A stretch of 64,000 nt of DNA from Parcubacteria group bacterium (lineage in GTDB: Bacteria > Patescibacteriota > Patescibacteriia > UBA2169). The stretch lies in NCBI GenBank assembly GCA_016181765.1, contig JACOYR010000004.1:201853-265852 (forward strand), in the 5' to 3' direction. Position 1 is the stretch's first letter, and the number at the start of each line of letters is the position of its first letter. Both the position numbers and the translations under genes were made by a program. Shown here in pieces: positions 5,344 to 45,075 of the stretch. The notes beneath the pieces are model-generated. The model was not told where the DNA came from, did no database searches, and saw nothing but the letters and a program-made list of their open reading frames with translations.

Positions 5344-6132
5344 TCACAGCGGGCTCTGAATCGCGGCCAGAGCAGATCGCGCCACCTTGGTGTACACCTG
5401 CGTGGTGGTAAGCCGCGCGTGGCCCAAGAGCTCCTGGATGTACCGAATGTCGGTGCCGTTCTCCAGCAAGTGCGTGGCAAACGAATGGCGCAAGCTGTGG
5501 CAGCTTGCCTGTTTTTTGATGCCCGAATCTTTGAGCGCGTGGGCAAATATCTTTTGAGCCGACCGTTCAGTCAGCTTCCCGCCGCGGCTGCTTTCAAACA
5601 CAAAATCGCGTGCGTCTTTTTTTGCAACATACCGCGCAAGCGGCGCGCTGACTTTTTCAGAAAACAAGGTAACCCGGTCTTTCCCTCCTTTGCCGCCGCG
5701 AACCATCACGGCTTGGTTATCAAAATCCAAATCCCCCACCTTGAGATTCACGGCTTCGGAAACCCGCAACCCGGCCGAGTACATCATCCCGAGCAGGAGC
5801 TTGTGCTTGGCGCTTTTGATGGTTCCGAGCAATAACCGCACTTCTTGTTTGGAGAGCACCACCGGAAGTTTTTTTGATGATTTGGCGCGCGGAATGGAAA
5901 CAAAAAATCTCCGCTTGAGCACGGAGCCAAAGTAAAACTTAAGGGCGCTGTACACGGTATTGAGTGTTGACGCGGACTTTCCCGCGTCCGCGAGCGCTTC
6001 CAGATACTTTCGGACATCAGCCGTAGTGGTTGCCCGGGGGCCTTTGCCCGCCGAGCGCAAAAAGCCTTTGACGTTCGTTATATACGAACTTTGGGTCATT
6101 GGGCTAAACCCCCGCAGTTTCATCTCCTGCAC
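5344..6132 (-). CDS. tyrosine site-specific recombinase (XerC/XerD/IntI branch)
   Basis: The C-terminal catalytic motifs HSLRHSFATHLLENGTDIRYIQELLGH…TTQVYTKV are present. The segment KKLPVVLSKQEV…GLRVSEAVNLKVGDLDFDNQAVMVRGGKGGKDR resembles XerD and IntI. At 262 aa it lacks the IntI-specific insertion. It is divergent from the adjacent AT-rich island. Confidence 0.9.
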   Translation of the reverse strand: MQEMKLRGFSPMTQSSYITNVKGFLRSAGKGPRATTTADVRKYLEALADAGKSASTLNTVYSALKFYFGSVLKRRFFVSIPRAKSSKKLPVVLSKQEVRLLLGTIKSAKHKLLLGMMYSAGLRVSEAVNLKVGDLDFDNQAVMVRGGKGGKDRVTLFSEKVSAPLARYVAKKDARDFVFESSRGGKLTERSAQKIFAHALKDSGIKKQASCHSLRHSFATHLLENGTDIRYIQELLGHARLTTTQVYTKVARSALAAIQSPL

Positions 6133-6179
6133 GAATTTCTCAAAGCCTTCCGTAAAAACAACCAGTTCGTATATAACTA

Positions 6180-6207
6180 GTTATAAGAAATTTAATTTGA
6201 AAGCCCT
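6180..6207. repeat. left copy of a 28-bp imperfect inverted repeat (gttataagaaatttaatttgaaagccct) flanking the deoxyribosyltransferase-like gene
   Basis: Its reverse complement pairs with 6633-6660 at 25 of 28 positions. Confidence 0.7.
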
Positions 6208-6237
6208 AAGAGGAATTAACAAGTAAATGCATGAAAT

Positions 6238-6630
6238 ATGAAAATAGTCATCTGCGGTTCTAGACGTTTCTTTGACGACATTCGCGACTTGGAACGCAAG
6301 TTGCGCGAGAACGGTCATATTGTCTTGGGACCCATACTCAACAGAAATAAATCTATCAGCGACCTGCCGAGTGATCTTAAAACATACGCTTTTTTAGGAT
6401 TGACGCTTCACCATTTTGAATTTATCCGCAAAGCCGACATCTGCTTCATGTACAACAAAGATGGTTATCTTGGCAACAGTGGTACTTTGGAGCTTGGTTT
6501 TGTGGTCGCCTGCGGTATTCCAATATACGCTCTGAATGAAGATAAAGACGAGGTTTGCAGGAATGTACTCTTTGACTTCGTGGTTAATGACATTGATGAA
6601 TTCGTTAAAATTGTTAATTCCAATAAATGA
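6238..6630 (+). CDS. nucleoside 2-deoxyribosyltransferase-like / SLOG-fold protein
   Basis: The 130-aa product starts MKIVICGS…, and the segment GYLGNSGTLELGFVVACGIPIYAL matches the catalytic-Glu region G.G.ELG(F/Y)A of the Nuc_deoxyrib_tr family. The gene is AT-rich (about 33% GC) and is bounded by inverted repeats. Confidence 0.65.
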   Translation: MKIVICGSRRFFDDIRDLERKLRENGHIVLGPILNRNKSISDLPSDLKTYAFLGLTLHHFEFIRKADICFMYNKDGYLGNSGTLELGFVVACGIPIYALNEDKDEVCRNVLFDFVVNDIDEFVKIVNSNK

Positions 6631-6632
6631 CA

Positions 6633-6660
6633 AGGGCTTTCAAATTAAACATCTTATAAC
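6633..6660. repeat. right copy of the 28-bp inverted repeat; it overlaps the start of palindromic element A copy 1
   Basis: The sequence agggctttcaaattaaacatcttataac is the reverse complement of the left copy at 6180-6207. Confidence 0.7.
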
Positions 6661-6839
6661 ACTGAATATGCGGTTCAAAAACATTGCCCATTAGATACGA
6701 TTGGTCGCAATGTTTTTTCACCCAAATGGCGCTTCTGATATCCGCGATTGATGTTGTCTATACTGTGCATCTGATGACCACACTCCTACTGATTAAGACG
6801 GCGCCACTTCGCATATTCAGGAACGTTGCGACGAAATAA
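6656..6839 (+). repeat. palindromic element A, copy 1 (about 184 bp): outer IR cactgaatatgcgg/cgcatattcag, inner perfect 11-bp hairpin aaaaacattgc/gcaatgttttt, 3' tail gaacgttgcgacgaaataa
   Basis: It is 5'-identical over about 68 bp to copy 2 at 11488, and it shares its architecture and 3' tail with copy 3 at 12786. Confidence 0.7.
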
Positions 6840-6980
6840 TTTTTTTTATAAGTTTTTCTCAATCGGCTTTTTAAGAAAAGGAATAAAATAAGTTTTTTAA
6901 GAATTAGGATTTTAGGAGGGGTAAAGCCAAGGTGGTTTTCTCCGCTTCGCTCCGAAAACGATTCATTAATTAATTTATGT

Positions 6981-7439
6981 ATGTCAAAAATTAATGTAGT
7001 TTATACGCCCAAAATTGATGAAGAAGAAAAAAGAATATTTGAAGAAGTATTCGGAAAAAATAAAGTAGTATTTGGGGAATATAAAATTAAAGGAATAACA
7101 TGGGGCGCATTTGACATTCAAATAATAATAGACGCCTTGAATGACCCCACCATAACAGCCTTACTACACGGCACAGAATTTGCGCGTTTAATTGCCGTAT
7201 TGGTTAAAAAATTATTTAGCAGAAATACTAAAAAAATAATGGATAATAAATCAAGACCCAGATACACGACTTTGGTTATAAGAAAAGAAACTAGTTCTGT
7301 CGTAGTATCAAATGTTAATCCCGGCAACAAAATTCTTATTTCTAAAATCACGGCTAATTTCGAGGAAATTAAAAAACAGTTTGAGAGCGGTGATGATAAA
7401 TATACAGATGAAAAACTTAATAACTACTTGGATAATTAA
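6981..7439 (+). CDS. hypothetical protein (152 aa)
   Basis: It is an AT-rich ORF in an operon-like arrangement with the next two ORFs, which are spaced 5 and 4 bp apart. Confidence 0.5.
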   Translation: MSKINVVYTPKIDEEEKRIFEEVFGKNKVVFGEYKIKGITWGAFDIQIIIDALNDPTITALLHGTEFARLIAVLVKKLFSRNTKKIMDNKSRPRYTTLVIRKETSSVVVSNVNPGNKILISKITANFEEIKKQFESGDDKYTDEKLNNYLDN

Positions 7440-7444
7440 AATTT

Positions 7445-7651
7445 ATGAAGTCAAAAATAATTAAAAGCAAACGACTAAAGGATCGCATAGTGGAGATAAT
7501 TGAGTATAAAGATGATTTTGGGAAAATTGTAAATTATTCTGTTATTAACGTAAACCATGGCGAAGGGGTCATTGCGGGTGCCGGTAAATTAGAAGAAAAT
7601 AATTTTTCTAATGAAGAGGAAGCAATGATATTTTTTAATAATCAAAATTAA
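7445..7651 (+). CDS. hypothetical small protein (68 aa)
   Basis: Its spacing to the neighbouring genes suggests translational coupling. Confidence 0.4.
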   Translation: MKSKIIKSKRLKDRIVEIIEYKDDFGKIVNYSVINVNHGEGVIAGAGKLEENNFSNEEEAMIFFNNQN

Positions 7652-7655
7652 ATCT

Positions 7656-10136
7656 ATGCAAAAACAGTTCACAATCTATTTTATTCTTATTTTTATTCTA
7701 GGATTAACTTCGCTTAATTTTATTCAAAAAGTAAAAGCGTCAGATATTCCTGTGCCTATTGCCTACTGGAACCTTAACGACCAGGATGCTATAAATGCTG
7801 GCTTAGCATCCGATCAAATGGGTAACTATAATATGCAAATAGTTGACGGTACTTGGGATAGTAATGCATATGATGGCGGTTCTGTTGTTTTTAGTTGCAT
7901 GAAAACTGATTATAATGCTTGCGGGGCAAAAATCAGTAACGCCCTGCCAGAATTGAGCAAGTTTACTATATTATACAGAGTAAAATTAAAAGGTCCTATT
8001 AACAATACTCTTCGCCGCATCGTTGATTCAACGGGAGGATTTCATACATATTTTGACGGAAACTCAATCATGATTTCAGGAAACGGCATGAAAAATAGTA
8101 TTGATGAACCAATCAGTGTCAGCGAAAATTGGTATCATTTCGCAGTTGTTTACGACAATGCCGATGGTTATTATTTTTATAAAAATGGAAATTTAGCTGA
8201 ATACTCTACGACATCAGGCAATAAGATAAGCAGTGGGATCTGGTCCTTTGGGTATGGTGGTGGTGTCCAGGGCGATGCGAGTGCAAATATTATCCAACTT
8301 GATGAAATAAAAATATATGACACAGCACTTACCTCAGATCAAATTTTAGAAGAAAATAATTACAACGAAATAAGGTGTAAAGCAGATATTTACCAATATG
8401 GTGAGTGGGGCTCATGTCAGCCTGACGGCACAAAAACCAGAACTGCGACCAAAACGTTTAACTGTCCTTATACAAATAATGAACCAGAAAATGCAACAAC
8501 AAGTTGTAGCTATATTCCGCCTACTTGTACTTCTTGGCAATACTCAAACTGGTCGCAGTGTTCGAATAGTGGCCAACAAATAAGAACTATTATTTCATCT
8601 TCGCCAAGTGGCTGTGTTGATGGAAAGCCAATTTTAAATCAAAGTTGTAATTATACTCCTGTTTGTACAGTCAATAATTGGTCGTGTGATAATTGGTCGG
8701 GTTGTTCTTCTGGTGGAACTCAAACCAGATCCTGTAATAAAATTTCAAATTGCGAGGGTGGAATTTCCGCCCCGACCACCTCTCAATCCTGTACCTACAC
8801 TCCGACTTGTTCGGCAGACACTTGGCAGTGTGAAAATTGGGGGTCTTGCTCGCCACAAGGAATACAGGCAAGAAGCTGTACCAGAACCTATGACTGCCCG
8901 TCCGCTGAAACAGCGGCCCCGGCGACATCGCAATATTGCGTAGCCCCAAACCAGCCCAAACAACAATCACCGACCGAGGATTTGGGCATAGTAAACCAAA
9001 GCACAATTATAAAATCCACAGTTAAGCTTGTTTGTCCCGTAAATAGCACCACCGCAAGCCAAGGTTCGGGCACAGTTATCAATTCAACCGGCTTAATTTT
9101 GACCAATAAACACGTCATTGACGATACAGCCGGATGTCTAGTCGGGTTTATTGATGATTATGGCGATGAACCGTATTTTGGCGACAGGCAGATCGCTGAT
9201 ATTTACAAAATATCCAGCGATGCTGATGTTGCTGTTTTGAAATTGAGAAATCCAAGCAACAAGCCGCTAACCTCGATCAGTATTTCTCAAAGCAACAGCA
9301 ACAACATCAAATTGGGAGAAATACTTACTACCTACGGCTATCCGGCAAAATTCGGCACAAAAATAACCTACACCAGCGGCGATTTTAGCGGCGTGGACGG
9401 CAATTATCTGAAAACAACCGCTATTATTGAGCACGGCAATTCCGGCGGAGGCGCGTATTTAAAAAATGGCGCGTTTATCGGCATTCCAACCGCCGTAGTA
9501 AAAGGCAGTTTAAACTCCTTGGGCTATTTACTGTCAATCAATAAAGTAAACAGCTGGCTTAATAATTCTATAGCATATAACTACAATAATAATGACAATA
9601 ATTATTCGCGGGTTTCGGCTTTGTTAGAAGATATAAATTTGAACACTCTTGATTCTTTGGGCCTGTTCTTGCCTGGAGATGAGAAAAATCTTAAAACCCA
9701 AACAGAAAGCCAAAGCGTAATAGCCGAAGAAAAATTGTTGACCACCAAAATTGACAGCAGTTTATCAAGAAGAGTGAGTGGAAATATTCTGTTGCAGGTG
9801 GAAAAGAAAGGCGAAGGGTGGTATGTATATCCGGATAATAAAAAGAAGTATTATTTAGGCCGTCCGGCAGACGCTTTTAGCATTATGCGGAATTTGGGAT
9901 TGGGAATCAAACACAGCGAACTTAGCATTTATCTCAATTCAAAATTTCCCAGCAGATTATCCGGGAAAATATTATTGGATGTTGAGCAAAAAGGCGAAGC
10001 GTATTATATCAATCCAAACGACTTAAAGGGCTACTACCTTAGCAAGCCAGCAGACGCATTCAGAATTATGCGAGAACTCGGGCTGGGAATCACTAATGAT
10101 GACATAAGGAAAATTGACGTTGGTGAGACAGAATAA
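7656..10136 (+). CDS. secreted multidomain protein with a signal peptide, a LamG/ConA-like lectin domain, three thrombospondin-type-1-like Cys repeats, a trypsin-like serine protease domain and two C-terminal repeats of about 60 aa
   Basis: The N-terminus has the hydrophobic segment MQKQFTIYFILIFILGLTSLNF. The LamG-like region reads NWYHFAVVYD…LDEIKIYDTAL. The WxxWxxCSxxGxQxR repeats are CTSWQYSNWSQCSNSGQQIR, WSCDNWSGCSSGGTQTR and WQCENWGSCSPQGIQAR. The TNKHVI segment (His) and the GNSGGGAY segment (Ser) indicate a trypsin-like protease. Tandem repeats at the C-terminus read GKILLDVEQKGEAYYINP… and SGNILLQVEKKGEGWYVYP…. Confidence 0.8.
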   Translation: MQKQFTIYFILIFILGLTSLNFIQKVKASDIPVPIAYWNLNDQDAINAGLASDQMGNYNMQIVDGTWDSNAYDGGSVVFSCMKTDYNACGAKISNALPELSKFTILYRVKLKGPINNTLRRIVDSTGGFHTYFDGNSIMISGNGMKNSIDEPISVSENWYHFAVVYDNADGYYFYKNGNLAEYSTTSGNKISSGIWSFGYGGGVQGDASANIIQLDEIKIYDTALTSDQILEENNYNEIRCKADIYQYGEWGSCQPDGTKTRTATKTFNCPYTNNEPENATTSCSYIPPTCTSWQYSNWSQCSNSGQQIRTIISSSPSGCVDGKPILNQSCNYTPVCTVNNWSCDNWSGCSSGGTQTRSCNKISNCEGGISAPTTSQSCTYTPTCSADTWQCENWGSCSPQGIQARSCTRTYDCPSAETAAPATSQYCVAPNQPKQQSPTEDLGIVNQSTIIKSTVKLVCPVNSTTASQGSGTVINSTGLILTNKHVIDDTAGCLVGFIDDYGDEPYFGDRQIADIYKISSDADVAVLKLRNPSNKPLTSISISQSNSNNIKLGEILTTYGYPAKFGTKITYTSGDFSGVDGNYLKTTAIIEHGNSGGGAYLKNGAFIGIPTAVVKGSLNSLGYLLSINKVNSWLNNSIAYNYNNNDNNYSRVSALLEDINLNTLDSLGLFLPGDEKNLKTQTESQSVIAEEKLLTTKIDSSLSRRVSGNILLQVEKKGEGWYVYPDNKKKYYLGRPADAFSIMRNLGLGIKHSELSIYLNSKFPSRLSGKILLDVEQKGEAYYINPNDLKGYYLSKPADAFRIMRELGLGITNDDIRKIDVGETE

Positions 10137-10259
10137 AAATATCCAATTATTTGTAGACATCTTTCTTGTCTTATTCTAATATATATGCTATTATTAGAAT
10201 AAGCTAATTCTTTATTATAACCGTTAGAATAACGAAACTCCTTATTCTAACCGCAAAAT

Positions 10260-11360
10260 ATGGCTAACCAACCCTTTAATCCGCCCGCCTTACCGCCAAA
10301 AATCAACTATGAGCCACTGATTGACCATATTATCAGGGCCCACCGCGCCCTGGCCGGGCTTGATTCCCTGCTTGGCGCTTTACCCAACCCGAACCTATTG
10401 GGCCGAACCATGCAAACCAAAGAAGCGGTGGAAAGTTCAAAAATAGAGGGTACCCAAGCCACGATCAACGAAGTCTTGGCGTATGAAGCGGAACCGGGGA
10501 AAAAGGAAGATGCCAAGAAAAAACAAGACATAAACGAGATTATAAATTACCGCCAGGCTTTGGACTTGGGAGTAAAAAGTTTAACCACACTGCCGTTGTC
10601 CGAAAACTTGATTAAAAAACTGCATGCCACCCTGCTTAAATCCGGCCGGGGCGCCAATAAAGCGCCGGGTGAATTTAGAAAAATACAGGTGTACATCGGC
10701 AAGCCCGGAGCCACTATTTCCGAAGCGTCATATATTCCCCCGGCTGCTAACGGCATAATCTCCTTATTCAGCAATTTGGAAAAATACCTTAATAGCGGCG
10801 ATGAAAAAGACAAATTAGTGCAAATCGCGGTGGCCCATTATCAATTTGAAGCTATCCACCCTTTTTTGGACGGCAACGGCCGGGTCGGCCGGCTGATTAT
10901 CTCTCTGTTTTTGTACGAGAAAAAATTATTATCGCACCCGTTTCTGTATTTGAGCGAATTTTTTGAGGAGCACCGCCGGGATTATTACGAATTATTGAGC
11001 AATGTGAGCGCCAAGCAGGATTGGGAAAGCTGGATAAAATTTTTCTTGAACGCCCTGGCCACCCAAGCCCAAAAAGCCGAAGCCATTGGCAAGGAAATTC
11101 TGAAACTCCACAGCGGCTATAAAGAAAAAATTATAGCCATCAACTCCATGTATGCCAATAACTTATTGGACGCGATTTTTATTCGGCCGATTTTTACCAC
11201 TGCCAGCCTGCGGCCGCACGTTAAAATGAAAAATACCCAGACATTTTTCAGCTTAGTGGCAAAATTCGCCGCCGCCGGAATTTTAGAAGAAGCCAACCCC
11301 AAAAAAAGACGCAATAAAGTTTATGTCTTCACGGAATTAATGAAGCTTTTGAATAAATAA
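10260..11360 (+). CDS. fic: Fic family AMPylase (Fido) with an N-terminal inhibitory motif
   Basis: The canonical HPFLDGNGRVGR motif is present. The upstream SSKIEG matches the (S/T)xxxE(G/N) auto-inhibition motif of class II Fic proteins. Confidence 0.9.
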   Translation: MANQPFNPPALPPKINYEPLIDHIIRAHRALAGLDSLLGALPNPNLLGRTMQTKEAVESSKIEGTQATINEVLAYEAEPGKKEDAKKKQDINEIINYRQALDLGVKSLTTLPLSENLIKKLHATLLKSGRGANKAPGEFRKIQVYIGKPGATISEASYIPPAANGIISLFSNLEKYLNSGDEKDKLVQIAVAHYQFEAIHPFLDGNGRVGRLIISLFLYEKKLLSHPFLYLSEFFEEHRRDYYELLSNVSAKQDWESWIKFFLNALATQAQKAEAIGKEILKLHSGYKEKIIAINSMYANNLLDAIFIRPIFTTASLRPHVKMKNTQTFFSLVAKFAAAGILEEANPKKRRNKVYVFTELMKLLNK

Positions 11361-11447
11361 AGAGTTTTGGGCAAAGGGCATTCACCCCTAACCCCTCTGC
11401 CCCTTGCCCAAAACAAAAAATAAATTTAAGATTTAAGAAAAAAAAGC
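11361..11447 (+). repeat. repeat B, copy 1: terminator-like hairpin ttttgggcaaagggca…tgccccttgcccaaaa plus an AT-rich tail, directly after fic
   Basis: It is about 90% identical over its first 53 bp to 12658-12745. Confidence 0.7.
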
Positions 11448-11487
11448 CTACCAAAAGACATCAAAAAAAATATTTTTAGAACAGCGT

Positions 11488-11605
11488 ATAACACTGAATA
11501 TGCGGTTCAAAAACATTGCCCCTTAGATATGATCGGTCGCAATGTTTTTTCACCCATATTTGCCTCCGCTACGCTTTGGCAAACATCGCATATTCAGGAA
11601 CGTTG
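11488..11605 (+). repeat. palindromic element A, copy 2
   Basis: The 5' 68 bp are near-identical to copy 1, and it ends with tcgcatattcaggaacgttg. Confidence 0.7.
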
Positions 11606-11943
11606 TAACCGCTCAACAAGACCGTAGAGACCAAAACGATTATTTCCATCAGCAAATAAACATATTCGTAAAAAATTTGAGTGACGGCAATGAGGTGCAA
11701 ATCCTGTCCACCCAAGGAGATGTAAGAGAAACGGGATGGGTTAGTGCAAGCTTTAGTCCTGACAGCAAATACGGCGTATACAATCTAAACAAGCAGCTCT
11801 GGATTCTTGACGCTGAAACTGGAGAAAAAACACAGCTTACAACCGAGTTGAGAGAGTACCGCGAACCTCGTTGGTCTACGGACGGAAATAAAATTATCTA
11901 TACTACGGGTGAAGAAGTAAGATTAATTAAACTGACATTTTGA
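11542..11943 (+). pseudogene. fragment of a TolB-like PD40 beta-propeller protein (probable gene remnant)
   Basis: The translation …SDGNEVQILSTQGDVRE…FSPDSKYGVYN…REPRWSTDGNKIIYTT contains PD40-type repeats. There are only about 100 aa of the domain, and the ORF's 5' end runs into repeat element A, so no credible start exists. Confidence 0.35.
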
Positions 11944-12032
11944 TTCTATCAAATACATATATTTCCCTTGAACCTGCCCATGAGGCGGGCAGACACCCCA
12001 TTAGTTCCCCTCCGCCCTTTACCTATCAATTC

Positions 12033-12563
12033 ATGAAACCAACACCAAACAACTTCGCCTACATTGACGCCGCCAACTTGCACCGGGGCGTTATTCAGCT
12101 TGGCTGGCAATTGGATTACAAGAAATTCCGGATCTGGCTGAAAGAGAAATACGGCGTTAGCCAGGCCTATCTTTTCATCGGTCTGGTGCCCAAGCACAAA
12201 GATTTATACACCAGCTTGCAGGAAGCCGGCTTTACCCTTGTCTATAAAGAAATAACCTATGACGGCGAGGGCAAGGTCAAAGGAAATTGCGACGCTGATT
12301 TGGTGCTTAAAACCACCCGCGACGCTTACGAAAACTCGTTTGCGCAAGCGATTTTGGTTTCCAGCGACGGCGATTACGCCGGCTTGGTTAAATTTTTGCT
12401 GGAAAGAAACAAGTTCATGGGCATTATTTCCCCGTCAGTTTCGGCCAAATGTTCGGTGCTATTGAAACGGACCGGCGCGCGCATAGCGTACATCAATGAC
12501 CAGAGGTCCATATTGGAAATTACAAAAGGCGGCCAAAAAGAAAAAGCCCCCGGCCGGGACTAA
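12033..12563 (+). CDS. NYN-domain (LabA-like) putative ribonuclease
   Basis: Conserved acidic residues of the NYN fold are seen in FAYIDAANL…GNCDADLV…VSSDGDYAGLV. The ORF opens at 11940, but the Met at 12033 is the likely start. Confidence 0.8.
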   Translation: MKPTPNNFAYIDAANLHRGVIQLGWQLDYKKFRIWLKEKYGVSQAYLFIGLVPKHKDLYTSLQEAGFTLVYKEITYDGEGKVKGNCDADLVLKTTRDAYENSFAQAILVSSDGDYAGLVKFLLERNKFMGIISPSVSAKCSVLLKRTGARIAYINDQRSILEITKGGQKEKAPGRD

Positions 12564-12657
12564 CCCCGGCAAGGGTCTTTTTCGTAGTGATAAATACAGT
12601 ATAGCAGTTTGAGGCAAAAAGTCAATATAACTTATAAACAGCCCAAAAACAGACAAA

Positions 12658-12745
12658 GAGTTTTGGGCAAAGGGCATTCACCCCTAACCCCTCTGCCCTT
12701 TGCCTAAAACGGAAAAAACTTATTTTAAAATTTAAGAAAAAGCCG
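12658..12745 (+). repeat. repeat B, copy 2 (after the NYN gene)
   Basis: It carries the same hairpin as copy 1 with one compensating mismatch, and the same aaatttaagaaaaagcc tail. Confidence 0.7.
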
Positions 12746-12785
12746 ATTGAAGAAAAATTCAAAGAAAAAAAATTACATCGCGCAA

Positions 12786-12910
12786 CAGCGCATATGAGGT
12801 TCGGGAAAAAGCGATAATTTGATATAATCAAGGTGTCGCCTTTCCCCTCTCCCAAACCCGCCAAGGAGGCGGGCTTCTCATATGCGCGAACGTTCTGCGA
12901 AATAAAATAA
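12786..12910 (+). repeat. palindromic element A, copy 3 (diverged): outer IR gcgcatatgag/ctcatatgcgc, 3' tail gaacgttctgcgaaataaaataa
   Basis: Its architecture and conserved 3' tail match copies 1 and 2. Confidence 0.55.
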
Positions 12911-12926
12911 TTTTATTCAATTTTTT

Positions 12927-13183
12927 ATGAGTATAGAAAGACCTGAAAACATACAAGAACAGCTTCGGGAAATTTTTTTAAAGGAAGAATATACCTGTCG
13001 CCGGAACAATTAAAAATCATTGATTTCTTGGACCAGATGGGGCGCATTGTCGTTAAAGACGCGGAAGAGATATTGTCCTGCCCGCGGCGCACGGCGCAAT
13101 TGCACTTGCAAAAATTAAAAAAGATTAAAATGATTAAAGCCACCGGCAAAGGCAAATCCACCGCCTATATCGCCAATAAATAA
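12927..13183 (+). pseudogene. winged-HTH regulator (…LSPEQLKIIDFLDQMGRIVVKDAEEILSCPRRTAQLHLQKLKKIKMIKATGKGKSTAYIANK) split by a frameshift in a T7 tract
   Basis: The ATG at 12927 gives MSIERPENIQEQLREIFLKEEYT and then a stop. Frame +2 (read relative to that ATG) continues from 12947 as an HTH with the typical GKG(K/R)ST.Y ending. The two frames join at aatttttttaaagg. Confidence 0.4.
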
Positions 13184-13213
13184 TAAGGGTGTTTAAGGCG
13201 CGCGGTATGTATG

Positions 13214-27647: not shown

Positions 27648-28085
27648 CTAGGCGTGCTTGTCTAAAAATGTGCTGTAAGAATCGGCAAACTGCTGAAAAA
27701 CATCAGGGGCTTTCTGCAAATACGCATACACTTTTTTAAAATCAACATCTGCATACTCATGAATAAGCAAATTTCTGAATTTTGTCATATCCTTATTCTC
27801 ATTGATTATTTGTTGCGGAACAACTCCGACTTCTCCCAAAAGGCGCACAATATCAGAGTAATCTTCGGCTGATTTTTGAAAAACAGTACTCAAAATATGA
27901 TTTCCCGCATCAGTTATAATCGCAATCCCAATCGCTAAATCAAACATAGCCGCCCCGTTCAACTTTTTGTCAGCGATAAAATCCTCTTGAGTTTGCGCCT
28001 CTTCGGCATATTCCCGCAAATCACTGATGAGATCTTGCAATTTCATCAATTTTTTTTGAATTGATTTTCTATCTAGTGGGGACAT
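27648..28085 (-). CDS. hepT: HepT-like (DUF86) toxin
   Basis: The Rx4HxY motif RNLLIHEY is present. The gene is AT-rich and overlaps the 3' end of the MNT gene. The start is uncertain (ORF to 28196; Met at 28085 or 28046). Confidence 0.75.
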   Translation of the reverse strand: MSPLDRKSIQKKLMKLQDLISDLREYAEEAQTQEDFIADKKLNGAAMFDLAIGIAIITDAGNHILSTVFQKSAEDYSDIVRLLGEVGVVPQQIINENKDMTKFRNLLIHEYADVDFKKVYAYLQKAPDVFQQFADSYSTFLDKHA

Positions 28086-28536
28086 ATATTTCCGGTTTGC
28101 CAAATGTTTTATGAACCAAATGTCGGCGCATGATTTGATACTGTGTTTCGCGGATGTGGTTTGTGTCTTCGTATTCTCTCCTGATTTTTTGCTCAATCAT
28201 AAATCGCTGTTCCTCATCAGTAACATACAGCGGCTTTGCGTAAAACACGGCGCGATGTTTCAACAGCGGGCTCTTGCATGTTTCCAAATTAACCACATCA
28301 ACGCGGTCAATCTTAAACACACTCCCAATATCGGACATCATGCTCAACTCCAAATCAAACTGCTTGTCTTTTGGTACTTTCTTGGAAAAAACCACGGCAA
28401 TGTCCACATCCGACAAAGGACCGACATTACCCCTGGCGCGCGAGCCAAACAAATACGCCAGCGCAACCTTGCGCTTTTCAAAAATCGGGGCCAGTTTTTG
28501 CTTGATTTCTTCAATGGTTTTGGTCATATAATCCAA
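28069..28536 (-). CDS. mnt: MNT (minimal nucleotidyltransferase) antitoxin
   Basis: The GSxxxG…DxD motif GSRARGNVGPLSDVDIAV is present. It lies upstream of, and overlaps, hepT. Confidence 0.8.
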   Translation of the reverse strand: MDYMTKTIEEIKQKLAPIFEKRKVALAYLFGSRARGNVGPLSDVDIAVVFSKKVPKDKQFDLELSMMSDIGSVFKIDRVDVVNLETCKSPLLKHRAVFYAKPLYVTDEEQRFMIEQKIRREYEDTNHIRETQYQIMRRHLVHKTFGKPEIYVPTR

Positions 28537-28663
28537 GTTTGGATGATGATGTCAGTATAACAGATATTTTTGATGAAATAAAGGGTTGATGATGCAGTTT
28601 TTGCGCTAATGTTGGGGAAAAATAAATGATGAAATATGGCTAATTTTAGCCTATCTTGTGCTA

Positions 28664-28692
28664 TTGACATTATTTTGTAGGTGTGGTATAAT
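28664..28692 (+). promoter_or_regulatory. consensus promoter TTGACA-17-TATAAT with extended -10 TGG (TGGTATAAT)
   Basis: The + strand reads ctaTTGACAttattttgtaggtgTGGTATAATagat. Confidence 0.7.
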
Positions 28693-28731
28693 AGATACAT
28701 AATCAAAAGCCAAAAAAACCGTTCTTTGATA

Positions 28732-28781
28732 GAGGTGTTGCGATGATTGCTTAAGCCCTTGAGCCATTATCGCAACACCTC
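28732..28781 (+). repeat. leader hairpin module, copy 1 (18-bp arms gaggtgttgcgatgattg / ccattatcgcaacacctc) in the 5'UTR
   Basis: The same architecture, with covarying arm sequence, is found at 29267-29322 and 30471-30528. Confidence 0.7.
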
Positions 28782-28881
28782 GCAAAATAAGGACTGCCCG
28801 CAGAGGGCGTATGGACACATTTCCGCAATTCCGCGGAGATGGTCCCACTCAATAACGCCCGACAGGGCAGGAGAAAAAACA

Positions 28882-29142
28882 ATGCGGTACCATTGGGCAA
28901 TCATGAATGAAGACGGCCGGCCCCTGGCGTACTGCCAGGAAGACACCCACATCGTCCCGCCAGAGGGACGACACCAAGAAGTTTGCATTCGGGGGTACTT
29001 CCTCCGGAGGATCGGGAAATCCTCCAGCCGCTTCGTCCGGACCATGGACGAGGCACTGGCCCTCGTACCCGGCGGGGTGAGGTACGAAGGCTGGTACCGC
29101 GGGGCTACCTGGCCCTGCGGTGACGGCGTGCCCGACTGGTGA
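28882..29142 (+). CDS. small Cys/Trp-rich hypothetical protein (86 aa)
   Basis: An AGGAG sits 8 nt upstream of the ATG. It is the first gene downstream of the strong promoter. The ORF is open from 28747. Confidence 0.5.
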   Translation: MRYHWAIMNEDGRPLAYCQEDTHIVPPEGRHQEVCIRGYFLRRIGKSSSRFVRTMDEALALVPGGVRYEGWYRGATWPCGDGVPDW

Positions 29143-31246: not shown

Positions 31247-32335
31247 TTATTTCACCGCATAATTTTTCGCGGCAAACACGTACTGCTCTATGAAGATAGC
31301 CTTAAATGGAATAATTGAATTAACCTCGTAAAACACGAGGGTCGCTTCGCGGTAGTCTTTCTCCTTTACGCTCCGATAGGATAGAGGCGCGCAGTTGTGC
31401 GCCAGCAATATCGCGTTTGCCATAATGCGCGCGGTGCGCTTATTGCCGTCATTAAACGGCTGAATGTAGCTGATGCCGAGCAAGGCCAAGAGGGCTTTGG
31501 CATAGGGGGTTTTCGCCCTTGCCATGGCGGCCGCCAGCGCCTCTACCGCCTCTCTAATCTGATGCGCGTTGTCCAGCGGCCGATACTTGGAACCGGTTAC
31601 GCCGACCGGTTTTTGGCGCAATCCCGCGCCCACGCTTAAATCTTTCACTACCATGCCATGCAGTTGTTCAAGATTAGGGCGCGTCAGAACGCGAAACTCT
31701 TTCTTATGTTCGTACACAAACTCAAACGCGTCCTTGTGATTGAGAATCATGCGGGCTTCTTTTTTATCATGCCCAAGAGCTTCCTTGCGCTCTAAAATAA
31801 GCTTCTCCGTGTCAAGAAGCGTATACGTATTCCCCTCAATCTTTGATGATTTCCAGGACAGTTCTATGATGAGCCGTTCTAATTCTTTCTTTTGAATGGC
31901 CCGCGGTAACCGCGCCGTCCGCGCATGATATTCGTCGGTTGCCTTTTCAAGAGCGGCTTGTTCGGCCGGAGTGAAGATATCGGAGAGGAACGACGGCAGC
32001 AGATCAAAATTAAAACGCGCGAGCCCAAAGCGCTCGTCCGGTTCCGTGGCGCAGTAACGGTTCGCGTCCACCTCGCTCCAGATGCGCCCTAAAACGCTGA
32101 TGCCGTACGCGCGCGACCGGCCGCGGCCAAAAGCGGCCAAAAGCCCCGCCGCGGCCATGCGGGATAGTTCTCGCTTAATGGTTACCAGCGAGGTTTCTTG
32201 GCCTTCTCTGGCCAGGCGGCTGTGAACCTCTGAAGAACTTATGAAATCTTGGCGTAGAAATAAATCCAGTATTTTTTGCTGCTTTGAACTGATTATGGTC
32301 ATAATCGTATCATTTATACTAATTAATCGTATCAA
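31247..32335 (-). CDS. HTH-Fic family protein with a degenerate Fic motif (QPFNDGNKRTAR instead of HPFx[D/E]GNGR)
   Basis: An N-terminal winged HTH is followed by a Fic fold. The catalytic His is replaced by Gln and the second Gly by Lys. Confidence 0.75.
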   Translation of the reverse strand: MIRLISINDTIMTIISSKQQKILDLFLRQDFISSSEVHSRLAREGQETSLVTIKRELSRMAAAGLLAAFGRGRSRAYGISVLGRIWSEVDANRYCATEPDERFGLARFNFDLLPSFLSDIFTPAEQAALEKATDEYHARTARLPRAIQKKELERLIIELSWKSSKIEGNTYTLLDTEKLILERKEALGHDKKEARMILNHKDAFEFVYEHKKEFRVLTRPNLEQLHGMVVKDLSVGAGLRQKPVGVTGSKYRPLDNAHQIREAVEALAAAMARAKTPYAKALLALLGISYIQPFNDGNKRTARIMANAILLAHNCAPLSYRSVKEKDYREATLVFYEVNSIIPFKAIFIEQYVFAAKNYAVK

Positions 32336-32383
32336 AATGATACGATTATGTCAAACATATCGCCCGTAACCACTCACAATGGT

Positions 32384-32422
32384 AAGCTAGAAGTTATAGC
32401 AAGGTAGCGGGCCATTTTTTTT
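32384..32422 (+). repeat. direct repeat of 31200-31236 (aagctagaagttatagcaagg[c/t]agcggg…ttttttt) lacking the left stem arm
   Basis: About 34 of 37 positions are identical. Together with 31200-31236 it brackets the HTH-Fic gene. Confidence 0.7.
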
Positions 32423-32473
32423 GACTAAAATAGCTTGTAGTGTTAATCTAGTAGTATAGAGAATCCAATACAT

Positions 32474-32680
32474 ATGGAAACAGCAACAATGCCTAAAAAA
32501 ATAAGCTCCGCATCATTACACGAGCTTAAACCGTTTATTGTGCAGACAATTTCCGAAGTCTTGAACGACCCTGATTTTGGTTTAGAGCTAAGCGATCGGG
32601 CGCAGGCAAGGCTGCGGCAATCCAGAGAATCTTCGGATAAAACAATCTCGTTCAATGATGTCAAAAGAAAGTATCATTAA
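32474..32680 (+). CDS. putative antitoxin (68 aa) of the ParE-like toxin
   Basis: It is a small ORF 7 bp upstream of a ParE/RelE-family gene, in an AT-rich islet. The family is not recognised. Confidence 0.5.
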   Translation: METATMPKKISSASLHELKPFIVQTISEVLNDPDFGLELSDRAQARLRQSRESSDKTISFNDVKRKYH

Positions 32681-32686
32681 ACCCAT

Positions 32687-32956
32687 ATGGGGGAATGGGA
32701 GTTGGAATTTTCCGTTGCGGCCGAGGATGACCTCGCCGCGCTTGATAACGAACTGCGGCAGAGAATCATCAATAAGCTTGATTGGTTTTTGGAAAATTTT
32801 GATTCGCTTTCTCCTGAATCATTAACCGGCGAGTACAGGGAATTTTATAAATTGAGAGCGGGCCAGTGGAGAATATTCTATAAGGTCAACTGGCAACAAA
32901 AGACAATCACGGTCCACTATATTGACCCGAGAGACAAAGCGTACAGGAAAAGATAG
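32687..32956 (+). CDS. ParE/RelE-superfamily type II toxin
   Basis: The C-terminus …LRAGQWRIFYKVNWQQKTITVHYIDPRDKAY is characteristic of RelE/ParE. Confidence 0.75.
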   Translation: MGEWELEFSVAAEDDLAALDNELRQRIINKLDWFLENFDSLSPESLTGEYREFYKLRAGQWRIFYKVNWQQKTITVHYIDPRDKAYRKR

Positions 32957-33022
32957 CGAGTGATGCGCACGCGGAAAACAACGCCATATTTTTATGCCGT
33001 TTTTTTATTCGCCGCCGTTTTT

Positions 33023-43885: not shown

Positions 43886-44167
43886 ATGAATAACGATGAA
43901 GAACTAATTAAAAAAGCCGATATTCAGAGGATAGCAGAAGAAGGGGCGAAGATTTACGACCAGATTAAGGTCAATTATGACCCCAAAGAAAGGGGCAAGT
44001 TTTTGGCTATTGATATTGATAGCAAAAAGGCATATCTCGGCAACACAAGTGCTGAAGCGTTGGAGCTGGCAAGACAAAATCATCCCAATAAGGTCTTTTA
44101 TGTTGTGAAGATAGGATTTGATGTTGCCGAAACAATGGCGAAAACATTTACTGACAGCTTTAAGTAA
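43886..44167 (+). CDS. hypothetical small protein (94 aa)
   Basis: It lies in an AT-rich islet, and the Met at 43886 is the likely start. It is paired with the downstream aspartic-protease-like gene. Confidence 0.45.
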   Translation: MNNDEELIKKADIQRIAEEGAKIYDQIKVNYDPKERGKFLAIDIDSKKAYLGNTSAEALELARQNHPNKVFYVVKIGFDVAETMAKTFTDSFK

Positions 44168-44175
44168 TTTGTAAA

Positions 44176-44544
44176 ATGATTAGCGGCGTATTTGTAGAAA
44201 ACATACCCTTAATAAAAGTTGTAGTGGCTTGGGGGCAATCAGTGCAAGCCCCTTTTGTTATTTTGGACACTGGTTTTACTGGTGATTTTCAAGTAACACC
44301 CAAGATAGCAGGAGAACTCGGTCTCCAAGTTGCTGGTGTTACAAAAACACAAATTGCCAATGGCGATGTTATTGAAGTTCCCGTAGCTCTCGCAGTTGCG
44401 GCGATGGAAGGGGCGGTAAATTACATTCAAGTTTTAATATCTGAAAGTATGCCGTTAGCTGGTATCAGCTTTTTGTCTAAATTTGGCTATAAGGCAAGTA
44501 TAGATTGTAAATACAGAACTGTGGCATTGGAGAGAATGATATAG
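44176..44544 (+). CDS. retropepsin-like (clan AA) aspartic peptidase domain protein
   Basis: The ILDTGFTGDF segment carries a D-T-G active-site signature typical of A2 retropepsin-like proteases. The product is 122 aa. Confidence 0.6.
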   Translation: MISGVFVENIPLIKVVVAWGQSVQAPFVILDTGFTGDFQVTPKIAGELGLQVAGVTKTQIANGDVIEVPVALAVAAMEGAVNYIQVLISESMPLAGISFLSKFGYKASIDCKYRTVALERMI

Positions 44545-44646
44545 TGACTAGTGCGGTGGGTTTAAGTTGCCGAGGACGTGATGCAAAAATCCATGCACCG
44601 GAACACTAATCATGAGCAGTGGCGGTTCCCCATAACTAGAGAGCGC

Positions 44647-45075
44647 CTACGGCTTCGGCAGCTTGCGGTACTTGTTAGCCACGCGCACGCGGGCAAATTC
44701 CTTTTCCAGCTTTGCTTGCAAGGCCGCGTAATCAACGTCTTCGTGGTGGCGCGCCTCGGACATCAGTTTCTCGGCGCGCTCATGCGCTTCCTTGGCGCGC
44801 GCCACGTCAATTTCTTCGGCGCGCTCGGCCGTGTCCGCCAGCACCACCAAAGAATTGTCCGGCCGCACCTCGCAAAATCCGCCGGAGACGGCCAGGGCGT
44901 ATTCTTCCTCCCCTTTCTTGCAGCGCAATTCACCGCTTTGCAAAACCGTAACCAACGGTATATGCCCGGGTAAAACAGTAATTTCGCCGGACGTGGTCAT
45001 CATGGTAACTTGGTCAATCTGGTCTTCAAAAACCACGCGCTCCGGAGTGATAATTTTGAAGTTAATCGTGCCCAT
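44647..45075 (-). CDS. atpC: ATP synthase F1 epsilon subunit
   Basis: A conserved N-terminal beta-sandwich (…ITPERVVFEDQ…) is present, and the gene follows atpD. Confidence 0.9.
   Translation of the reverse strand: MGTINFKIITPERVVFEDQIDQVTMMTTSGEITVLPGHIPLVTVLQSGELRCKKGEEEYALAVSGGFCEVRPDNSLVVLADTAERAEEIDVARAKEAHERAEKLMSEARHHEDVDYAALQAKLEKEFARVRVANKYRKLPKP

Follow-up and report, generated by a model that had tools for sequence, protein, structure and literature searches.

A 64,000-nt stretch of a Parcubacteria group bacterium (assembly GCA_016181765.1, contig JACOYR010000004.1, positions 201,853 to 265,852), referred to below as the window, contains a 28-bp inverted repeat (IR) that brackets one small gene beside a tyrosine recombinase gene. 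The repeat is interpreted as the outer stem of a palindromic attC-like site that belongs to a 645-nt cassette (6181-6825), and within an integron-like array this cassette would be the one nearest the recombinase gene. The probability of this reading is put at about 0.75, and it includes, with the same confidence, a platform made up of a XerA-like tyrosine recombinase gene and a 28-bp dif-like core site just upstream of it. The cassette architecture, covariation in the stem, cassette turnover at the strain level, exact cassette boundaries and the polarity of the arrays were observed directly. The coordinates of all features are collected in Table 1.

The arms of the repeat (GTTATAAGAAATTTAATTTGAAAGCCCT on the left, AGGGCTTTCAAATTAAACATCTTATAAC on the right) are 28 nt each and lie 425 nt apart. 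The pair reported in the initial annotation at 6180-6207 and 6633-6660 is real and occurs once in the window, but the 25 of 28 matches given there were a miscount for 26 of 28. Two matches to the arm occurred in none of 100 dinucleotide-preserving shuffles. Sequence searches revealed no third copy of the 28-nt arm in the 64-kb window and, the same locus excepted, none in 212 fetched loci; 17-mer matches in viral contigs stop at the 17-mer and are chance matches. The enclosed gene was said to have a stop codon abutting the right repeat; it is indeed tightly bracketed, with the stop codon (6628-6630) 2 nt short of the arm. Likewise, the distance of 47 nt between recombinase gene and left arm holds, but the end facing the repeat is the 5' (start) end of the ORF and not its 3' end. 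The 130-aa product matches the Pfam family Nuc_deoxyrib_tr weakly (E 7e-4, below the cut-off), while most of its 143 homologues carry PF05014; searches with PADLOC and NCBIfam models gave no match. No promoter above chance level was detected inside the repeat or in cassette 1. An 82% identical homologue (locus L204) lies in an ordinary context without the repeat, and a 72% identical one (L205) lies in a long array, in the apical loop of a unit and with a different flanking repeat (GGTTC-GCGGAC...GTCCGC-TCACCCAAAT). The repeat is therefore a property of the cassette and not of the gene.

The left arm begins inside the core site (J0), at the G of G/TT (the slash marks the crossover position). 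The consensus of the core, AGTTCGYATAT-AACTAG-TTANNNGAAAT, has 11-bp arms around a 6-bp centre (11-6-11), a 28-bp site of dif type beside a gene of the Xer family. It resembles dif of Escherichia coli (GGTGCGCATAA-TGTATA-TTATGTTAAAT). Seven genomes of the candidate phyla radiation (CPR) share the site (the window, L089, L093, L094, L096, L099 and L101), the recombinases of the relatives compared being 95%, 82%, 80% and ~60% identical (range across the set 59-100%). In the window and its six relatives the DNA on the side of the recombinase gene stays conserved as far as ...AGTTCGYATATAACTAG/TT and is unrelated past G/TT. A metagenome scan for TTCGYATATAACTAGTT returned 102 stretches, 61 of them with the conserved left context; on the right, these 61 loci read GTT-R-NNN-G(A/C)AAT and then run into at least 35 unrelated continuations.

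The extent of cassette 1 is given by the comparison with L089. There the core site is directly abutted by GTTGCGACGAAATAATTTTTTTTATAAG... (GTTGCGACGAAATAATTTTTTTT...), a sequence that starts in the window at 6825 (86% identical over ~150 nt), where GTTGCGACGAAATAA... comes after the end of hairpin unit U1, ...CAGGAAC (...CGCATATTCAGGAAC). The window thus equals the L089 arrangement plus an exact insertion of 6181-6825, made up of the two arms with the deoxyribosyltransferase-like gene between them, together with a hairpin unit (AAC-A-11 nt stem...stem-GAAC-G). On the left the cassette begins at position 2 of the left arm (G/TT, 6180/6181), and on the right it ends 165 nt past the right arm. 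The suggestion in the initial annotation of a small mobilised cassette with terminal inverted repeats therefore came close, but the repeats are not terminal. A second case is provided by L158 and L147, whose 600 nt on the recombinase side share 99.7% identity. Here L158 has one extra cassette of ~1 kb between ...AACTAG and the first cassette of L147 (TTATGTGAAATAGCC...), ending in ...CAGATAGCCCG-ATAC-G, which is the same type of boundary as in the window and L089; L200 carries a third first cassette on the L147/L158 background. The primary site adjoining the recombinase gene is thus where strain-level insertion takes place, as at an attI site.

Every array junction has a hairpin unit in front of it, of the form ...ACATC-NNN-YAAC, A, 11-nt stem, loop, AACTT, complementary stem, 4-nt bulge and G/TT-R-NNN-GAAAT. 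Twelve units from five arrays share the architecture AAC-A-stem...stem-NNAC-GTT with an asymmetric spacer (1 nt vs 4 nt), the bulge being GAAC, AAAC, ATAC or ATGC. Four compensatory double changes in the 11-bp stem set U3 apart from U1. The stems covary: in 26 units AAC/GTT is invariant (26/26), and 10 of the 11 inner-stem pairs have changed on both sides. A strict hairpin pattern gave 22 matches in 1.16 Mb against 0-4 in shuffles; a relaxed pattern (161 matches against ~55) had too high a background and was dropped in favour of the strict pattern and motif counts. Downstream of the core, junction motifs number 36 on the + strand and 5 on the - strand, with 0 and 1 on the recombinase side, and all genes of the island lie on the + strand, directed away from the recombinase, with the IR at the left edge of the island; the array is polar in both respects. 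The strict pattern also detects a canonical attC array (GCCTAAC...GTTAGGC, 9-10 sites) at 9141-15340 of L031, an Ignavibacteriota metagenome-assembled genome (MAG), which suggests that the units are structurally attC-like. That array is directly downstream of, and co-oriented with, a gene for a 316-aa recombinase without the IntI insert (TIGR02249 250.7 bits, below the cut-off of 265). The attC consensus RYYYAAC/GTTRRRY is not strictly matched by the units described here (e.g. TTATAAC / GTTATAA).

The outer arms follow a rule of their own. Among the first cassettes, 15 have a start (TT-R-NNN-GAAAT plus an extension) that is reverse-complementary to the DNA in front of their own AAC; the arms are 28 nt long in cassette 1 of the window and 9-43 nt in 13 further first cassettes. 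A second pair in the window (6825-6908 and 12703-12786, ~80 nt) obeys the rule as well. Both mismatches of the window's repeat (TG in the right arm against AA in the left) fall in the GAAAT motif, and in 8-9 of the 15 first cassettes, the window included, the only inner mismatches are at positions 10-11, with GAAAT in the junction copy and GATGT in the copy beside the hairpin unit. Because the pattern recurs in 8-9 unrelated cassettes, the two mismatches are a conserved feature; the recombinase-arm motif is retained in the left copy only. At the core site of L135 the GATGT variant (GTTATGTGATGTAGCCAG) takes the place of the GAAAT seen in the related L147 and L142, as though the junction of L135 carried the "wrong" arm of the palindrome.

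When the cassette ends are joined in silico, a hairpin results in which the paired 28-bp arms lead into the 11-bp stem, and the centre of the fold has 6 nt on one strand (CACTGA) and 9 nt on the other (TCAG-GAAC-G). Double-stranded array junctions have a 9-nt central region, i.e. the wrong spacing, whereas the folded site restores 11-6-11 with three extra bases, which argues, on geometry alone, for a folded single-stranded substrate. Under the proposed mechanism the two ends of a cassette would meet in an excised circle (circular junction ...CGCATATTCAGGAACG/TTATAAGAAATTTAATTTG), and excision would leave the empty junction ...TATATAACTAG/TTGCGACGAAATAA. As a single strand, the junction region could form a long hairpin resembling the core site, in which the inner stem corresponds to the left arm of the core and the outer stem, with its conserved C.A/A.A double mismatch, to the right arm; the 3 surplus nucleotides lie at the centre. 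Recombination with the core at G/TT would then insert the cassette next to the recombinase. Such an insertion splits the palindrome, one arm going to the cassette start and the other behind the gene, so that the arms bracket the gene. The order within a cassette is TT-R-NNN-GAAAT with its extension, an optional gene, the reverse complement of the extension with ACATC-NNN-YAAC, A, the 11-nt stem, a loop that sometimes holds a gene, the complementary stem, the 4-nt bulge and G. The adjacent recombinase would catalyse the reaction, on folded single-stranded DNA that replication would resolve, by analogy with integron attC and CTX-phage attP sites, and cassette expression is probably driven from outside the cassette.

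Cassette genes were seen in both hairpin loops in L205 and L158, namely between the outer arms and in the apical position (GGTTC... / ...TCACCCAAAT). A one-gene cassette model was dropped on account of the apical-loop genes of these two loci, which give two gene slots. First cassettes apparently without a gene between the outer arms were found in L105, L108, L129/L183 and L162, the gap there being only ~15-25 nt.

The recombinase matches the Pfam families Phage_integrase and Phage_int_SAM_4 and passes the cut-off of the NCBIfam equivalog XerA_Arch (233.9 bits, cut-off 220). The integron integrase model TIGR02249 is matched in two stretches and below its cut-off (212.8 bits against 265), and two models of tyrosine-type DNA invertases (FimB/E-type) reach 61 and 52 bits where 222 and 221 are required. 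In the alignment to VchIntIA/IntI4 (PDB 2A3V), residues 183-198 of the recombinase (16 aa) stand opposite chain residues 182-240 (59 aa), and the same gap appears in an alignment to IntI1; XerA of P. abyssi (4A8E) aligns in one piece, end to end. The IntI-specific additional domain (about 43 residues, around patch III) is absent. Members of the family are ~275-280 aa long and 60-65% identical across Parcubacteria, Moranbacteria and Falkowbacteria; a profile search with the recombinase alignment gave relatives of at most 48% identity among the matches listed. Smyshlyaev et al. (bioRxiv 10.1101/542381) described a "Cand" subgroup of simple tyrosine recombinases, near Xer and confined to candidate phyla, without mention of cassette arrays for it.

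In the window the recombinase gene is truncated at its 5' end. Five Logan assemblies of the same population (L001-L005) all contain 70 nt that are missing at 6150/6151, where the microhomology CCTT(C/G)CC flanks the gap, and their full-length recombinase begins MRASKVNHTPVMKQSKGGEGFEKF... The gap may be a genuine inactivating deletion or an assembly error. Within the recombinase ORF, the inverted 14-nt copy of the core-site left arm with AAC covers the codons SSYITN and is present in L089 too; it may be an accessory binding site or an autoregulatory site. In MAGs of the CPR the recombinase gene very often lies 100-600 nt from a contig end, on its 5' side (L009, L011, L012, L014, L015, L018, L020, L057 and L093). 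Such ends fit assembly breaks caused by repeated units or by strain variation of the array.

Several points weigh against the integron-like reading. With the IntI-specific domain the recombinase lacks the part that binds the extrahelical bases of attC, and any recognition of a hairpin by it is putative. Start codon and promoter may have been lost from the recombinase gene of the window, in which case the array would be frozen here. The units used for covariation were chosen by complementarity, so that their 98.6% pairing holds by construction; independent support is provided by polarity and by flanking motifs outside the search pattern. Counts of G.T wobbles (6 vs 5) show no strand bias and give no backing for one particular folding strand. 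About 40 of the 61 first cassettes are without a clean partner under the criteria used, and in the window itself the second cassette is rearranged, the partner of the 5'-side arm of U2 being absent here and found in L094. Finally, excision, circles and integration are steps of a model proposed from sequence comparison alone.

Table 1. Features of the recombinase locus and the cassette array, with positions in the window.
Feature	Position	Strand	Description
Tyrosine recombinase gene	5344..6132	-	XerA-like, "Cand" Xer-like subgroup of candidate phyla; 5' end truncated in the window
Inverted copy of core-site left arm + AAC (GTTATATACGAACT)	6077..6090		Inside the recombinase ORF; repeat, 14/14 matching
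70-nt gap of the window vs five Logan contigs	6150..6151		Missing: recombinase start codon (MKQSKGGEGFEKF...) and TATAAT-like box
28-bp dif-like core site (J0)	6164..6191	+	AGTTCGTATAT-AACTAG-TTATAAGAAAT; crossover window G/TT at 6180/6181
Left arm of IR	6180..6207	+	First 12 nt are the core-site right arm plus the preceding G; 3' half of outer stem
Cassette 1	6181..6825	+	645 nt; exact insertion relative to the L089 arrangement
Low-GC cassette array	6181..13200	+	GC 0.40 vs 0.55 in the rest of the window
Cassette gene	6238..6630	+	130-aa nucleoside 2-deoxyribosyltransferase-like protein, bracketed by the arms
Right arm of IR	6633..6660	+	Ends ACATC-TTA-TAAC; 5' half of outer stem
Hairpin unit U1 (attC-like)	6658..6827	+	AAC 6658-60, A 6661, 5' stem CTGAATATGCG 6662-72
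U1, inner part	6672-6687 / 6707-6722	+	Hairpin within the loop
U1, 3' part	6810-6827	+	3' stem CGCATATTCAG 6810-20, bulge GAAC 6821-24, GTT 6825-27
Second IR pair, left arm	6825..6908	+	~80 nt; partner 12703-12786
Hairpin unit U2	11490..11604	+	Ends 96-100% identical to U1
Second IR pair, right arm	12703..12786	+	Abuts U3; ends ACATCGCGCAAC
Hairpin unit U3	12784..12894	+	U1 architecture

The alternative that survives best, although it is considered unlikely, takes the core as the chromosome dimer-resolution site of a single housekeeping Xer recombinase and the array as a pile-up of non-replicative integrative mobile elements exploiting Xer (IMEX). Under it, as for CTX, TLC and the gonococcal island, the IR would still be the folded attP-like site of an inserted element. 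XerS/difSL systems, in which the recombinase gene adjoins dif, count in its favour, as do the dif geometry of the core, its likeness to E. coli dif, a recombinase scoring above the XerA equivalog cut-off and showing the conservation of a housekeeping gene, and the convergence of the genes of the window on the island. The placement of the "Cand" subgroup beside Xer (bioRxiv 10.1101/542381) agrees with it too. Against it, the GC skew keeps its sign across the locus (+0.146/+0.207 in L099, +0.118/+0.116 in L101 and -0.014/-0.049 in the window), a test on flanks of at most 10 kb per side that leaves this alternative some weight, and the flanking core genes of L099 and L101 run in one direction through the locus. 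A replication-terminus dif, which the gene convergence in the window had suggested, was rejected, as skew and gene orientation on these flanks of L099 and L101 lend it no support. Moreover, the cassettes are 0.5-1 kb long and single-gene, form arrays of at least three and are without replication or phage genes, which is integron-like.

Very unlikely is an element that acts at the RNA level, with transcribed arms and stems serving as mRNA-stabilising or terminator structures and arrays that arise otherwise. In its favour, both arms map to untranslated regions, 5' and 3', of one putative transcript, and the stems covary. The exact G/TT junction polymorphisms beside the recombinase gene nevertheless need DNA recombination, and neither matches to Rfam nor a G.U bias on the coding strand were found.

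Still less credible is the invertible segment proposed in the initial annotation, in which the recombinase would flip 6208-6632 between the arms and so switch gene expression, in the manner of the fim switch or of Bacteroides. The IR does adjoin a tyrosine recombinase gene, and both inversely oriented sites have the 11-6-11 geometry. The gene nevertheless has a single orientation in the five Logan assemblies; the central regions of the two sites differ (AACTAG vs TCAGTG); the GAAAT arm motif is gone from the right-hand copy here and in 8 other cassettes; a whole gene is enclosed and no promoter above chance level; the invertase family model reaches 61 bits against a cut-off of 222; and many cassettes of a polar array show this arrangement of a gene between two arms. 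The Logan contigs, all five of them, stop at 6684, with the contigs downstream beginning at 6660. These ends were considered as signs of population heterogeneity or inversion, a lead rejected because a 35-nt exact repeat (6655-6689 = 11487-11521) predicts them at k=31. The 25-nt direct repeat (6660-6684 / 11492-11516) was at first read as the att core of a large island, a view that gave way to the hairpin-unit model. A miniature inverted-repeat transposable element or insertion-sequence-like cassette mobilised by a transposase acting in trans through terminal IRs is considered equally improbable: the IR closely brackets one gene, yet there is no target-site duplication (flanks ...AACTA / ACTGA...), no further copy exists in the window or, the same locus excepted, in the 212 fetched loci, and the presence/absence boundary lies 165 nt past the right arm.

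The cassettes of the integron-like array encode the deoxyribosyltransferase-like protein, proteins of 152 and 68 aa without assigned function, an 826-aa LamG/trypsin protein, SoFic, a PD40 fragment and an NYN protein; a frameshifted small helix-turn-helix (HTH) gene is also present. The Fic protein matches the SoFic defence model (E 2.5e-114), and its segment (10142-11351) is inserted relative to an otherwise collinear cassette of L094. It is accompanied by a 57-nt palindrome at 10194-10250 (...TTATTATAAC G GTTAGAATAA...) that has an AAC-N-GTT centre but contains no standard hairpin unit. The distal cassettes of the window are rearranged, and in the last of them (12928-13183) the small winged-helix/HTH-like ORF is frameshifted into a 28-aa ORF with the remainder in another frame. 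No tRNA genes were found at the locus, and no Rfam matches at either gathering or E-value thresholds.

Two further conserved elements occur within the arrays. A leader of ~55 nt (GGGGTAA.ACCAAGGTGGTTTTCTCCGCTT.GCTCCGAAAACGATT), which includes a small hairpin, stands ahead of the first ORF of cassettes in several unrelated arrays (6917-6972 in the window; L094, L089, L099, L180 and L188); it has no Rfam match. A GC-rich hairpin of ~70 nt (GTTTTGGGCAAAGGGCA-TTCACCCCTAACCCCTC-TGCCCCTTGCCCAAAAC) follows ORFs in the window (11352-11420 and 12648-12716) and in the arrays of L094, L096, L103, L104, L148, L154, L174, L180, L186 and L205. Other low-GC patches of the window, at 28000-29000, 32000-33000 and 44000-45000 (0.44-0.48 against ~0.55), are without hairpin-unit repeats.

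What defines integrons is an integrase that carries an additional, special domain, and Xer recombinases are regarded as their ancestors; to our knowledge no intermediate between Xer and integrons has been described. The chances appear about even that Patescibacteria, and maybe other phyla, carry a widespread, chromosome-inherited analogue of integrons, with a Xer-type integrase without the IntI domain, a dif-like attI and long-hairpin cassettes with genes in both loops, which would be either an integron ancestor derived from Xer/dif or an independent reinvention. The mention of other phyla refers to the canonical attC array of the Ignavibacteriota locus, whose neighbouring recombinase is similarly short. 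In the literature searched, with incomplete coverage, neither integrons nor cassette arrays were found described for Patescibacteria, so an earlier description is possible. If the integron-like reading is correct, a plain Xer-like enzyme acting on a dif-like site would open the origin of integrons from Xer/dif to direct tests. Such a platform would further reveal how episymbiotic bacteria with tiny genomes exchange accessory and anti-phage genes, such as the SoFic defence gene of this array, and explain the frequent breaks of CPR metagenome contigs beside this recombinase gene. Integron finders that are based on attC and require the IntI domain would report these arrays as clusters of orphan attC sites at best.

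Compared with known systems, the locus shares with invertons (the fim switch, the invertible promoters of Bacteroides and shufflons) an IR next to a tyrosine recombinase gene; it differs in its single orientation, its unequal central regions, the enclosure of a whole gene and not a promoter, and the family of the recombinase. The pdif (Xer) modules of Acinetobacter plasmids are likewise single-gene modules bracketed by inversely oriented 28-bp Xer-type sites, but these are single double-stranded sites that alternate in orientation on plasmids, whereas here pairs of half-palindromic sites form hairpin units and the arrays are chromosomal, polar and anchored at a recombinase gene. IMEX of the CTX type have in common with it a Xer-family recombinase, a dif-like target and elements integrated in tandem, and their incoming forked hairpin, built from two inversely oriented half-sites ~100 nt apart, mimics the target. 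Unlike them, the elements here are sub-kilobase, non-autonomous cassettes, the recombinase gene is always in cis by the site, and the site lies off the GC-skew switch in the loci tested (L099, L101 and the window, with flanks of at most 10 kb). The integrons themselves differ from the locus in their integrase, the one found here being XerA-like and without the IntI-specific domain (about 43 residues). The primary site here is a symmetric 28-bp dif-like site, the crossover is placed in the middle of the palindrome so that 9-80 nt of the site, and not 6 nt, stand at the cassette start, genes occur in either hairpin loop, the double mismatch of the outer stem is conserved, and the host belongs to the Patescibacteria, from which no integrons are reported in the literature searched. 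What the locus has in common with integrons is a recombinase gene in divergent orientation to a polar array whose cassettes are co-oriented, compositionally foreign and mostly single-gene, a primary site by that gene which receives new cassettes with crossover at G/TT, and cassette ends in the form of an imperfect palindrome whose AAC...GTT is invariant, whose inner stem covaries and whose unpaired spacer is asymmetric, although RYYYAAC/GTTRRRY is not strictly matched. The contents, which include SoFic, methylases, an antitoxin and NUDIX proteins, are of the accessory and defence type, as in integrons.

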